A DNA stretch of 64,000 bases from Promethearchaeota archaeon (GTDB lineage Archaea; Asgardarchaeota; Lokiarchaeia; Sigyniarchaeales; SOKP01), in NCBI GenBank assembly GCA_048938855.1, contig JBHLLT010000002.1:224001-288000 (forward strand), written 5' to 3'. Below are positions 53,065-57,799 of this stretch, piece after piece. The notes under the pieces were generated by a model. That model was given only the letters and a program-made list of their open reading frames with translations. It was not told the origin of the DNA and made no database searches. Within the stretch, counting starts at the first letter, position 1. Each line of letters opens with the position of its first letter. Made by a program: the position numbers and the translations under genes.

Positions 53065-56000
53065 TCATTTCTTTTTTACTATTTTAGGCTTGAAAACTGA
53101 GGAAATTTCATTTTTTCCTACTCTAGCAATTCCTATTAACTTTTCAGCTAATAAAAATAACGAATTAGATGATTTTGGTAAAAACATAAATAATTGTATT
53201 GGATTTTGTTCTAATGTTGCTTTTATTAGTTGATAAACCACTTCAGAATTTTTTTCATCTAAAAACATGCCTGGTTCATCAAATAAACAGAGGGGAGAAG
53301 GTTTAATTTCTTGTAGAGATAAGATTAAACATATGGAAATTAAAGATACTTGTCCACCACTAAGAGCTGTAAATGATTTTAACTGGTCTTTTGAGGTAGC
53401 TGCTTTAATATCAACACCAAGATCTTCAATTTCACCGATTAATTCAAGTGAACAGTAAGATTTGATTTGGGAATCCTCAAATTTCTGATTTACACTATTT
53501 TGGAGTTTTTCTAGCAAAACCCTAAACTTATTATAATAAGTTTTTTCCATTTTTTTTTCAGTTTTAGTTGCCGCTTTAATATCATTTTCCAAATCTTTCT
53601 GATTGTTTGAAATCTCCTTAAGTGAAGATAAAATTTGATCCCTTTCAATTAATAGTGAGTTATCAACATCTAAATATTTAATCAGTTGTTTATCTATTCT
53701 GGAAATATCTGATATAATATCCTCTATTGAACGGATTTTTAGTATTTCCTCTGAAATTAGAGGACTTATTTCAGAATTAATTCGGTTTAAATCATTATTC
53801 TTGATCTCAAGATCTTGATTATATTTATTTAGTTTAATATTTTCTTGTTCATAGTTTAGTGTTATTTGAATATTTTTTCGCTCTAGATCACTCTTCTTGT
53901 TTTGTAGGATTAATATATCTCTTTTTACATCTGAAATTTCGTGTTCTGTAGTTTTAAGCTCTTCTTCAGTATTTTCTAATAGCCGAAAAATATTAAATGC
54001 ATTTTTATCCGCTTTCTGAAAAGCATCTCGCTTTATATCATATTCTTTCTGTATAGAATCCAAATTATATTTATGTTCATTCAATTTATCTCTAATTTCC
54101 TTTAAAATAACAGAGTTTTCATTTAATTTTAAATCCCATTTTTTCTTTTCTTCATTTAGGATGGCTAATTCATCAGGAATTTCTTTAATTCTATCATTCC
54201 ACTTAAGAAATTCTGGATCTGTTTGAGATTTTAGAACTGCAATTTCTTTCTCTAATTCAAATAATTCAGTTTTGAGATCATTATTTATTTTTTCTAAGTT
54301 ATGAATTTGGTCATATAAATGATTTTTTTTCGATGTAATTCTTTGTTTCTGATTAAAGTTATAAAGAAGATCATTGAAAGAGTCTTTTTTCTTAAATAAT
54401 TCTTTTTGGTTTGAATCTAATTTACCTTGATCGACTTTTAAGTCTATAATTTTTTCATTCAAAGTCTTAATTTCAGATTCTAAAACTTTTGATTGCTCTT
54501 TTTGAGTACCAGCACTTAGTAACCCTTTCAATCTTTTTAAATATGGTGTTTCAAATACATATTTGTATGAAATTATTTGTTCTCCCTTTAATGTAACACA
54601 TTTTCCTTTAAAGTTTAGTTTACGATATAAATCTCTTCCTGATCGATAATCAGTTACAACAAGGCAATTTTTAATCTTAGAATAAATAACCTTCTTGATA
54701 TCAAGATCATTATCAATAATCTTTATTAAGTCTGCTAAATACCCAAGAACTCCATCTGCAGAAACTTTATTCATCGGAATAATATTTACATTTTTAGAGA
54801 GATAAATGTTGCAGTACGCTCCATATTTCTCTTTTATTTTTTTAAGTAAGTTTAATGTATCCCAATCTTCAGCAACATAACTATATAATAATTTCTCACC
54901 GAGGACGGATTCAATCGCATAACTTAGACTATCATCATATTTTAAATAATCAATTATAGGACCTTTAACTTTAAGCCCTCTTTTCTTAATTTCCTCTTTT
55001 AGGATAGAAATGTTTGGAGGAAGAATAATACGGCGTTCTTTAAGTGAAGCTTGAAGTATTTTTAATTTATTTAGTTTTTTAGCCTTTAAGACCTCTAATT
55101 GATTTATTTCGGAATCTAAATCATAAATTTTTAATGAAATTCTCTTAAGATCTTTATCAAGCTGGATCAAAAGATTTTTAGTCGGATTTTCTAAGAACCA
55201 CCTATTCTTTTCTAATTCGTGTTCAATATCTTTAAAGCTTTGAAATAATTGATTAATCTCATCATTGTATACTGCGATTATTCTTTCATTTTCTTGGATA
55301 TTGCTTATTCCTTCTTGCTTCTCATGATTAATTCGATTGTATTTGTCGAAGAGGTCTTTATTAGCCTTAATTTTTTTTATCAATTGGTTTTGTTCAGTTA
55401 TTAATTTATCAATGTTTAAACCTGTGTTTTTACTTTCTTTTCTTATAGATGTTAAATCTTTACTAATTTTTTCATCTTGTTTTTCAAAATTTTCTTTTAC
55501 TTTTTTGATCTCATTGATTTTTGCTGACAAAGCATCTAATTCTTGTTTTGCCGCGATTTTCTCGTTCTGCCAATTTTGAATTTTTAGTGTTAACTCTTGT
55601 TTCTTGTAACTCAATTCACCTAATCTTTTAGATAAATCATGAATTGTTGATTCTTGTTTTGAGATTTTTTTAGAGTATGCATTTATTTCTCGTTCAGAAA
55701 ATTCCTTTTTCTTCTTGATTCCCTCTAGTACTAATTTAATATTATTAATAATTTCTTTAACACTAGTAATTTCCTTTTCTAACTTATCCTTATTTGCCCA
55801 TAAGAGTTCATCGTTGTATTTGTTTTTAATTTCTACTAACTCATTTTTTTTTTTAAGGCGTTCTAGTTTTGGATTTAACAGATCTAAACTAAAATTTAAA
55901 GTATTTCTTCTACTTTTTAGAGATTGAAGATCTTTACTCAAATTTTGAACATTGGACTTTTGTTCTAGAATTTCTTCTCGTAATTTTTTTAAACCAATAC

Positions 56001-56529
56001 CCTCTTCCAGGAAAGAACATAACTCTGAAGGTTTTAAATTTTTAATCGCATCAATTTTTCCTTGGCTAACAAAAGCAAATTGATTATCTGGGTTCAAATT
56101 TAAAGCTGAAATTAATTGCTGAGTATCTTGAACAGAAAGCTTTTTAAAATCTTGATCTTCTCCCCTTTGAACGTTATAATATGGAGATTGCCCTCGAATG
56201 ACATATCTTCTTAATTTTATAATTTCTTCTCCATTTTGAATGTGAATTTCGACCATAGCATGGTCTTGCCCATTTCTTATGAAATCGGACCATTTTTTAT
56301 AACGCTCATCTCTTTCATTACTGCCTAATGCAAATTTTATTGCTTGAAATACTGATGTTTTCCCACTCCAATTCGGTCCAACTATAATTACAAATTTAGA
56401 TTTACCAAAATTGACTTCATCTTTCTGGAAAGATAAAAAGTTCTCTAATATAACTTTTGTAATAAAAATCTCTCTATTTTCCTCTAATACTTTATTCTCT
56501 TCTTCTAAAGAATGTGTTATATTAGCCAA
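53065..56529 (-). CDS. smc: SMC ATPase, SMC5/6-like
   Basis: LENFLSF, GPNWSGKT, Q-loop FVSQG, long coiled coils, hinge KGPII..AIESVLG, LSGGQ, LFDE..FLD. Confidence 0.93.
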   Translation of the reverse strand: MANITHSLEEENKVLEENREIFITKVILENFLSFQKDEVNFGKSKFVIIVGPNWSGKTSVFQAIKFALGSNERDERYKKWSDFIRNGQDHAMVEIHIQNGEEIIKLRRYVIRGQSPYYNVQRGEDQDFKKLSVQDTQQLISALNLNPDNQFAFVSQGKIDAIKNLKPSELCSFLEEGIGLKKLREEILEQKSNVQNLSKDLQSLKSRRNTLNFSLDLLNPKLERLKKKNELVEIKNKYNDELLWANKDKLEKEITSVKEIINNIKLVLEGIKKKKEFSEREINAYSKKISKQESTIHDLSKRLGELSYKKQELTLKIQNWQNEKIAAKQELDALSAKINEIKKVKENFEKQDEKISKDLTSIRKESKNTGLNIDKLITEQNQLIKKIKANKDLFDKYNRINHEKQEGISNIQENERIIAVYNDEINQLFQSFKDIEHELEKNRWFLENPTKNLLIQLDKDLKRISLKIYDLDSEINQLEVLKAKKLNKLKILQASLKERRIILPPNISILKEEIKKRGLKVKGPIIDYLKYDDSLSYAIESVLGEKLLYSYVAEDWDTLNLLKKIKEKYGAYCNIYLSKNVNIIPMNKVSADGVLGYLADLIKIIDNDLDIKKVIYSKIKNCLVVTDYRSGRDLYRKLNFKGKCVTLKGEQIISYKYVFETPYLKRLKGLLSAGTQKEQSKVLESEIKTLNEKIIDLKVDQGKLDSNQKELFKKKDSFNDLLYNFNQKQRITSKKNHLYDQIHNLEKINNDLKTELFELEKEIAVLKSQTDPEFLKWNDRIKEIPDELAILNEEKKKWDLKLNENSVILKEIRDKLNEHKYNLDSIQKEYDIKRDAFQKADKNAFNIFRLLENTEEELKTTEHEISDVKRDILILQNKKSDLERKNIQITLNYEQENIKLNKYNQDLEIKNNDLNRINSEISPLISEEILKIRSIEDIISDISRIDKQLIKYLDVDNSLLIERDQILSSLKEISNNQKDLENDIKAATKTEKKMEKTYYNKFRVLLEKLQNSVNQKFEDSQIKSYCSLELIGEIEDLGVDIKAATSKDQLKSFTALSGGQVSLISICLILSLQEIKPSPLCLFDEPGMFLDEKNSEVVYQLIKATLEQNPIQLFMFLPKSSNSLFLLAEKLIGIARVGKNEISSVFKPKIVKKK

Positions 56530-56548: not shown

Positions 56549-57799
56549 TTATTTACCAAAAGCTTGCTTTATTAAGTCTATTCTCTTTTTCGCTTTCTCT
56601 AAATTCATCTGCGCTTGATTTGGAGAATCATTTAAAATAAAGGGGTGTTGTGACAATAATTTTAAATCATTCTCTTCCAATTGCTCCTTCTTATTTAACT
56701 TATCAATGATAATTGTGAGTTCAGTATAATTTTTTGATACAGCATCTTCATAAAGTTGATTTAGCATAAAATCTGAGATTCTGGATTCACGAATTCCTTC
56801 AATCACGCTACTTATATCTTTTGGTGTTTCATTTGTATGTGTCTCCTTCTCATAATCAATCTTTTGGTTTTGCATTATATCATCCTTCATTTGCACTTTT
56901 GAATTTCCTTGTCTTAGAATCTTTTGAGGGATTGGGATATACTCACCTGATTCAATTAAATCAATTAATATATCTGTTATTTCATTACTCGTCTCATTTA
57001 ATTCAGAGTTTAAAAAATGTTTAAATATTCCAACTTTTAATAGCTGTTTGATATCGTTAACTTCCCAATATTCAGTATAATTTAATATATCATTTACATC
57101 AAAAACTATCTTTGGATTAATTTCTAAATAATCTTTTAAAACGGTTTCCCGTTGTATTCTACTTAGCAAAGGAATTTTTATAAAAAGATCAAACATCTCA
57201 TATAAATTACTTGATATCTCATTAATATCTTCCATATCGTAATTTACCCACACTAAAATGATATTAGATTTAATGTAATTAAAATTGTTTCCCTCATTTT
57301 GCCAGACATTCAAAGGAACTTCCAATAAATTTTTATCATCAAATACCTCCTTAAATTTTAAGTCCTGGTTAATCAATAATAATTTTTTTTCTTCAATTTT
57401 ATCGGGATCTCGATTGCTTGGCCCCATATCCTCTTCTTCTTCATTAGATTTATTTAAAACTTTAAAAATTGAAATTAGACTATTTATAAATTTATTTGGG
57501 TTGTTATTAATTCCTATTTCATTAAATTCTATCAAATCTAAGTAATAATTCTTAGCTATTAATCGTATGTAATCTAAAATATCTGTCCCAGGACTAGCGT
57601 TAATCAAGACTGTTCCCTTTGGTTCTAAGTAACCATTCAAAACAGTATCATCATAATTGGTTAACATTACTTTAAGATAATTCATTATATCATTGTATTT
57701 CTCCCGATAGAAAATATTTTCTTTGTTAATCTTAATTTCTGAAGGTTTAATAATCTCAAAATACTTTGAGAATTCCGGAATGTCATTTAAATCTTTCAT
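56549..57799 (-). CDS. Degenerate (pseudo) AAA+ ATPase of the PAN/Cdc48 clade
   Basis: Colinear with PAN motifs, but Walker A is ASPGTDIL, Walker B is LLINQ, and the Arg finger is absent; FDLFIKIPLLSRIQRETVL is retained. Confidence 0.7.
   Translation of the reverse strand: MKDLNDIPEFSKYFEIIKPSEIKINKENIFYREKYNDIMNYLKVMLTNYDDTVLNGYLEPKGTVLINASPGTDILDYIRLIAKNYYLDLIEFNEIGINNNPNKFINSLISIFKVLNKSNEEEEDMGPSNRDPDKIEEKKLLLINQDLKFKEVFDDKNLLEVPLNVWQNEGNNFNYIKSNIILVWVNYDMEDINEISSNLYEMFDLFIKIPLLSRIQRETVLKDYLEINPKIVFDVNDILNYTEYWEVNDIKQLLKVGIFKHFLNSELNETSNEITDILIDLIESGEYIPIPQKILRQGNSKVQMKDDIMQNQKIDYEKETHTNETPKDISSVIEGIRESRISDFMLNQLYEDAVSKNYTELTIIIDKLNKKEQLEENDLKLLSQHPFILNDSPNQAQMNLEKAKKRIDLIKQAFGK

Follow-up and report, generated by a model that had tools for sequence, protein, structure and literature searches.

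What is a protein that has kept the AAA+ fold and lost the catalytic residues doing at the head of an operon for an SMC complex? The question arises from a 64,000-nt stretch of a Promethearchaeota contig (Lokiarchaeia; GenBank assembly GCA_048938855.1), which we call the window, in which four genes follow one another on the reverse strand and encode, in order, a pseudo-AAA+ protein of 416 aa, an SMC of 1154 aa and two proteins of 215 and 170 aa (Table 1). The SMC start lies 19 nt downstream of the end of the pseudo-AAA+ gene, of which the window genome has one copy. A sequence-only reading had described this gene as a catalytically dead AAA+ protein of the PAN/Cdc48 clade heading the SMC operon; its place as first gene, its fold and the loss of catalysis were all borne out, and the clade was not. 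A promoter and terminator scan at the operon stayed at chance level, its models being of the sigma-70 type and uninformative for an archaeon.

Table 1. Coordinates of the operon genes and of the parts of the pseudo-AAA+ protein; coordinates are those of the window, residues those of the pseudo-AAA+ protein
Feature	Coordinates	Strand	Evidence
Pseudo-AAA+ gene, 416 aa, first in operon	56549..57799	-	ORF, fold and profile evidence
Degenerate classic-clade AAA+ module (alpha/beta domain and lid), residues ~10-290	56930..57772	-	Fold matches residues 4-305; dN/dS 0.14-0.17
Dead Walker A, ASPGTDIL replacing GPPGTGKT, residues 68-75	57575..57598	-	Alignment to intact ortholog
Dead Walker B, LLLINQ replacing hhhhDE, residues 140-145	57365..57382	-	Alignment to intact ortholog
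Arg-finger region without arginines, YEMFD replacing WRRFD, residues 200-204	57188..57202	-	Alignment to intact ortholog
Variable, probably disordered linker, residues ~291-335	56795..56929	-	pLDDT <50; dN/dS 0.4-0.6
Family-specific helical C-terminal domain, residues ~336-416	56552..56794	-	Most conserved part; pLDDT 87; dN/dS 0.04-0.09
Non-canonical SMC, 1154 aa, hinge present	53065..56529	-	Walker A, signature and Walker B motifs present
Probable kleisin, 215 aa	52403..53050	-	Profile weakly matches ScpA C-domain structures, E 0.025; matches operon-B kleisin
Probable kite, tandem winged helix, 170 aa	51874..52386	-	Family matches winged-helix models; fixed position after kleisin

The AAA+ call had been made by eye from four motifs, which we located at residues 58, 138, 195 and 239, with counterparts in the PAN of the window. 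Searches of Pfam, NCBIfam and PDB sequences with the pseudo-AAA+ protein alone gave no real match, and in pairwise BLASTP the best E against that PAN was 0.2, short of significance. Even so, the protein is a true AAA+ homolog. A profile built from 36 orthologs matches Cdc48/p97 domains at E~1e-18, 18 of its 36 members match Pfam AAA, and the window protein scores 12.4 bits with a profile of active AAA+ domains, the highest of 300 shuffled sequences reaching 5.6. Its AF2 model (pLDDT 74.7) retrieves classic AAA+ structures with Foldseek (E~1e-7) and gives a VIA fold match of Z 14.3 (rmsd 3.9, 245 aligned), the top matches being tied between Trip13 (6p8v, Z 14.3) and p97-like structures (Z 13.6) and covering residues 4-305. 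The model has the alpha/beta nucleotide-binding domain followed by a helical lid that defines the classic clade; a charged, variable insertion lies inside the module at residues ~116-137.

Catalysis is another matter. Relative to an intact ortholog described below (P0270), the Lys and Thr of Walker A are I74 and L75, the Asp and Glu of Walker B are N144 and Q145, the sensor-1 Asn is Y187, the paired arginines are E201 and M202, and the pore loop is deleted. The pattern GxxxxGK[TS] occurs in 0 of 120 close homologs, and the Walker A Lys is absent from 36 of 36 dead orthologs. Judged by these residues, the protein itself cannot be a motor or an unfoldase.

The fold superfamily is common to PAN, Cdc48/p97, Vps4 and TRIP13, but the window protein differs from the classic remodellers in lacking their Walker, pore-loop and Arg-finger residues and a substrate-recruiting N-domain, and it falls in a separate clade. 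Its module starts near residue 10, without the N-terminal coiled coil and OB domain of PAN, and it is single, with neither the N-domain nor the tandem arrangement of Cdc48/p97. In an AAA tree PAN, Cdc48 and a Vps4-like protein form a clade (100/100) without the pseudo-AAA+ family. AU tests, weakened by the long branches of the dead forms, reject a grouping of the dead forms with PAN (p=0.0016) or with Cdc48 (p=0.0027) and do not reject one clade for all orthologs (p=0.21). The window genome encodes two PAN paralogs (window:61531-62745; G000:C81:31258-32466) and three Cdc48 paralogs.

By sequence comparison, the closest active relatives of the family appear to be IetA-type ATPases. The top families for P0270 are the IetA models (E 3e-60 in NCBIfam, 4e-66 in PADLOC), with a score of 204 bits that is under the curated IetA cut-off of 510. 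IetA is also narrowly top for one dead protein of Thor type; neither the NCBIfam nor the PADLOC IetA model matches the window protein itself. The intact ortholog carries the GEIKR..N, ATNH and WRRF signature of the IetA/Y4kL type (NF042959, PADLOC IetA), and the family shares with that type a single AAA+ module lacking MIT, OB or Cdc48-N domains. It differs from IetA in having a private C-terminal domain and, in the window, a catalytically dead copy, and from IetAS in its partner, which is an SMC in all mapped loci and not an S8 peptidase; the nearest bacterial relatives of P0270 do adjoin S8 peptidases. The AAA tree does not separate the branching order of the family relative to the IetA clade and the clade of operon-B proteins (see below). 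Given the tree, the AU tests and the IetA matches of the intact ortholog, the earlier PAN/Cdc48 label is wrong and the earlier fold call right. The high scores of Cdc48 and PAN structures in the PDB probably reflect the absence of an IetA-type structure.

The intact ortholog came from a deep profile search. P0270, labelled Ca. Odinarchaeota at NCBI, has the C-terminal domain and all motifs (Walker A, a YLG pore loop, FLDEFD, ATNH and WRRFD) and lies directly before SMC, 244-aa and 175-aa genes. Between it and the window protein stand intermediates: in Ca. Freyarchaeum orthologs Walker A and one of the arginines survive, but Walker B contains DN and the pore loop is missing, and P0164 (labelled Helarchaeales) and a protein of genome G240 keep Walker A alone. 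Fully dead forms come from Thor-type, Jordarchaeales, Baldrarchaeia and Loki-type proteins. Intact and intermediate orthologs hold the same operon position, and in a tree of SMC heads all dead forms and P0164 share a clade (99/96) whose sister (97/95) is the SMC of the P0270 operon. A metagenome scan with P0270 found no further intact ortholog. With P0164 added to the tree, the loss of Walker B and the arginines fits one event; the simplest history suggested by these sequences starts from an active enzyme, with hydrolysis lost once and Walker A lost one to three times. Because P0270 is intact and the Freyarchaeum and Helarchaeales proteins are intermediate, an SMC-linked active ATPase must have decayed by steps into a pseudoenzyme.

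Some of these loci have peculiarities of their own. In Ca. Freyarchaeum deiterrae (L088:8070-10577) the operon SMC is shortened to about 835 aa and the AAA+ protein has an extra, coiled-coil-like N-terminal segment of about 100 aa. In G240 (L092:5912-12326) the 560-aa AAA+ protein, of the same type as that of the window operon, is followed by an SMC whose branch lies outside the non-canonical clade, while the kite matches the non-canonical profile; subunit shuffling or a tree artefact is possible.

The sequence-only reading had also asked whether selection maintains the degenerate motifs, and had taken orthologs with intact Walker motifs to mean a decaying copy. Such orthologs do exist, but the dead form is strongly constrained: between close orthologs dN/dS reaches 0.14-0.17 in the AAA+ module, 0.04-0.09 in the C-terminal domain and 0.4-0.6 in the linkers, and over whole genes, window against closest relative, it is 0.18 for the pseudo-AAA+ gene, 0.12 for the SMC and 0.165 for the kleisin. 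We therefore regard the gene as a fixed pseudoenzyme. It is found in 135 of 301 Asgard genomes by protein search and in 139 of 301 by C-domain profile, nearly always as one match, including 63 of the 68 genomes of the window genome's family, 7/7 of the sister family and 59-60 of 76 genomes of a family (f9) taken as Thorarchaeia from its Atlas cluster label; these counts are not independent, since the genomes are kin. Labels on the homologs read Lokiarchaeia or Promethearchaeota. In every locus fetched the gene lies directly upstream of the same SMC, kleisin and kite genes, with a median gap to the SMC of 14 nt (41 loci) and overlapping frames in nine, and the genes flanking the operon differ between families.

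Most conserved of all is the C-terminal end. What had been read as an unassigned helical tail of about 130 aa is in its first part a variable linker modelled at low confidence, and only the last ~80 residues are helical, well folded and conserved. Modelled alone, this domain gives a confident fold. It is common to dead and intact orthologs, was not found in the operon-B paralog or in IetA relatives, and was not found in the 231 Thermoproteota genomes searched; its Atlas match is its own cluster only. Fold searches gave a best Z of 5.8 and no Foldseek hit at E<0.001, which does not in itself establish a novel fold, and the domain is an unannotated, Asgard-restricted fold candidate. The last helix of the protein is basic (+4).

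What kind of SMC complex does the gene head? Van Hooff et al. (10.1101/2024.01.07.573240) identify as SMC5/6-related a further SMC operon, the second one carried by TACK and Asgard archaea, which they describe with three subunits and no mention of an AAA+ gene; the same study found no hawk proteins in prokaryotes. The window operon shares with that operon the order SMC, kleisin, kite and its distinctness from Smc-ScpAB, and differs in the fourth, AAA+-derived gene at its head. A canonical SMC-ScpA-ScpB operon is present elsewhere in the window genome (C45). In an SMC tree of prokaryotic sequences, the window SMC falls, apart from the canonical SMC, in one group (100/99) with further non-canonical SMCs of Asgard archaea and the short ones of TACK archaea, and its head profiles match Pyrococcus Smc first among PDB structures, with yeast Smc5 second for the N-lobe and low for the C-lobe. 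One member of the kite family matches SMC_ScpB (1.2e-6), and the operon-B kleisin, which the window kleisin matches, weakly matches Nse4_C (E 0.0013). We infer that the window SMC is SMC5/6-related. Its motifs include a GPNWSGKT Walker A, an LSGGQ signature and, at the position of the H-loop His, a Pro (QLFMFLPK).

The fourth gene is far from universal in such operons. Families f7, f8, f14, f27 and f29 have related SMC-kleisin-kite operons without an upstream AAA+ gene, and the gene is absent at the TACK kleisin-kite loci examined; it is therefore an Asgard add-on and not an obligatory or core subunit. Four loci lacking it (L102, L103, L105, L106) encode an SMC of 940-1010 aa, a kleisin and a kite with an extra gene of ~155 aa after the kite, and at two Thermoproteota loci without an AAA+ gene (L137:5535-10019, L140:5136-10303) a short SMC (~590 aa) is divergent from the kleisin-kite pair. 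Several f9 genomes (L042, L065, L066, L068, L070, L074) have genes of 380-460 aa between kleisin and kite, or in place of the adjacent kite. In literature searches, subscription papers lying mostly outside them, an AAA+ gene in this SMC operon was nowhere described. The locus is a previously undescribed four-gene variant of a known SMC operon with a conserved pseudoenzyme. This analysis establishes the run of orthologs from intact to dead and the conserved C-terminal domain, and points to an ancestry of IetA type.

The window genome has a second operon of related make-up, operon B (L086:4620-12416; G000:C81:72619-80415). It encodes proteins of 322, 379 and 432 aa, an intact IetA-type AAA+ protein (369 aa), a 349-aa coiled coil, an SMC-like protein and a kite-like protein. 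Its AAA+ protein belongs to the same subfamily as the pseudo-AAA+ protein, with motifs intact and no C-terminal domain; the SMC-like protein, one open frame of ~540 aa, has no Walker A or signature motif. Operon B occurs in 61-64 of the 68 genomes of the window genome's family and in 6/7 of the sister family. In Ca. Harpocratesius and in families f30, f24 and f18, a B-type AAA+ gene stands directly before a long SMC with intact Walker A; the Ca. Harpocratesius operon (L122:4824-14941) has an intact 1057-aa SMC, a 322-aa gene, a 313-aa kleisin (weak Nse4_C match) and a 176-aa gene, and that genome has four SMC-like ORFs in all (1057-1492 aa). As AAA+ directly precedes SMC in this paralogous operon too, the pairing predates the operon duplication. 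The B-type protein was not found in the Thor-type, Jordarchaeales and Freyarchaeum genomes searched: at E<1e-27 families f9, f10, f11 and f28 gave none, a direct search of three f9 genomes and one f10 genome gave weak generic AAA+ matches only, and no third SMC was seen in a single-contig f9 genome or in an f10 genome. It was thus not always available as a partner of the dead protein.

With the AAA+ fold kept, catalysis lost, purifying selection acting and the tie to the SMC operon tight, a non-catalytic accessory role is plausible. The reading that we favour, with moderate confidence and on grounds of gene context and selection, makes the pseudo-AAA+ protein a partner without catalysis of its own, dedicated to the SMC5/6-related SMC-kleisin-kite complex of Asgard archaea. 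In the ancestor, the private C-terminal domain may have docked the ATPase on the complex, which would then have been remodelled at the expense of ATP (by loading, opening or unloading); hydrolysis and pore-loop residues would then have been lost, docking and a steric role remaining, and the dead protein would now be a stoichiometric binder of SMC-kleisin-kite that gates its ATPase or its loading onto DNA, a role that Nse5/6, with an unrelated fold, has in eukaryotes. The earlier suggestion of an Nse5/6-like regulator survives as a functional analogy: the likeness is one of proposed role, that of a non-catalytic regulator of an SMC5/6-type ATPase and its DNA loading, whereas Nse5 and Nse6 are alpha-solenoids and the protein here has an AAA+ fold plus a small helical domain, with no homology detected. 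Complex prediction with the SMC head lobes and kleisin scored 0.00, which is no answer and weighs neither way.

Several other explanations deserve consideration. The protein could be the dead subunit of a mixed AAA+ ring completed by the operon-B ATPase, the two operons being complementary halves of one machine. Operon B does supply an intact AAA+ protein of the same subfamily, an SMC-like protein without ATPase motifs and a kite; it is kept in the two families in which the dead protein is most eroded, and two kite types have been reported in such Lokis (van Hooff et al., 10.1101/2024.01.07.573240). We think the mixed ring unlikely, however, because the dead protein is also kept where the B-type ATPase was not found (f9, f10, f11 and f28), because it has no Arg fingers to supply to the active site of a neighbouring subunit, and because Ca. 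Harpocratesius combines a dead AAA+ protein of the window type with an intact B-type SMC. Contact cannot be read from gene context, and the protein might instead be a separate factor that is co-regulated with the SMC complex and works in its pathway without contacting it, for example by binding DNA, for which the basic last helix could serve, or by self-oligomerising through its retained fold. That many related SMC operons do without the gene fits such a factor, which we nonetheless consider distinctly unlikely: subunits or dedicated partners typically show what is seen here, a gene that is always first, in both operons and in Asgard classes far apart, with frames that overlap or nearly touch.

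An IetA ancestry raises the prospect of a Wadjet- or Lamassu-like defence operon, in which the protein would hold the SMC inactive as IetA-type ATPases restrain S8 protease toxins; IetA-type ATPase/S8 peptidase pairs are antitoxin-toxin modules (PMC8562856), and both the top family of the intact ortholog and the S8 neighbours of its bacterial relatives point that way. The near-universal, single-copy presence of the gene in these families, the families' cohesion in trees and a four-gene operon lacking a nuclease, protease or other effector make this very improbable. Less probable still is a role as adaptor between the SMC complex and PAN or Cdc48, as the sequence-only reading had proposed along with a scaffold or loader. 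Cdc48 and PAN domains score high with the ortholog profile and a PAN gene lies 3.7 kb away, but trees reject PAN or Cdc48 ancestry and among mapped loci PAN is near the operon only in the window genome and its closest relative; of that proposal the accessory role stands and the bridge to an active unfoldase is left without support. A functionless, decaying copy of an active gene, to which the long branches of the dead forms and the existence of intact orthologs might point, can practically be dismissed, refuted by the low dN/dS of the folded parts (0.04-0.17) and by length and reading frame conserved in more than 500 homologs and across classes.

If the dedicated-partner reading is carried further back, Asgard SMC5/6-related complexes may ancestrally have had their own AAA+ remodeller, whose copies, once the operon had duplicated, would have lost complementary activities in Lokiarchaeia (a live SMC with a dead AAA+ protein in one operon, a dead SMC with a live AAA+ protein in the other), the pseudo-ATPase coming to act as a loader or regulator in the Nse5/6 role before eukaryotes; we put this forward only tentatively. 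If true, an AAA+ remodeller would be a previously undescribed kind of SMC subunit, and with orthologs that run from intact to dead the change from motor to scaffold could be tested directly. The conserved fourth gene is a candidate SMC regulator in the lineage closest to eukaryotes, and it bears on how three-subunit prokaryotic SMC complexes gained regulators en route to eukaryotic SMC5/6. Since natural forms run from an intact ATPase, through ones that probably only bind, to a fully dead scaffold, reconstitution could test what the gene product does and also how a pseudoenzyme arises.

The surroundings of the window operon are of more local interest. Upstream of it, on the forward strand (window:58574-60770), lie genes that by eye encode an ArsR-like regulator, an Acr3-like arsenite transporter membrane protein and a small thioredoxin-like protein; these are not kept beside the operon in other genera. 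Converging on the operon from the other side, also on the forward strand (window:49596-51851), are genes for a 209-aa coiled coil, a 270-aa protein and a 211-aa small GTPase, which adjoin the operon in the window genome's family only and among which conservation is very high for the 270-aa protein and the GTPase.
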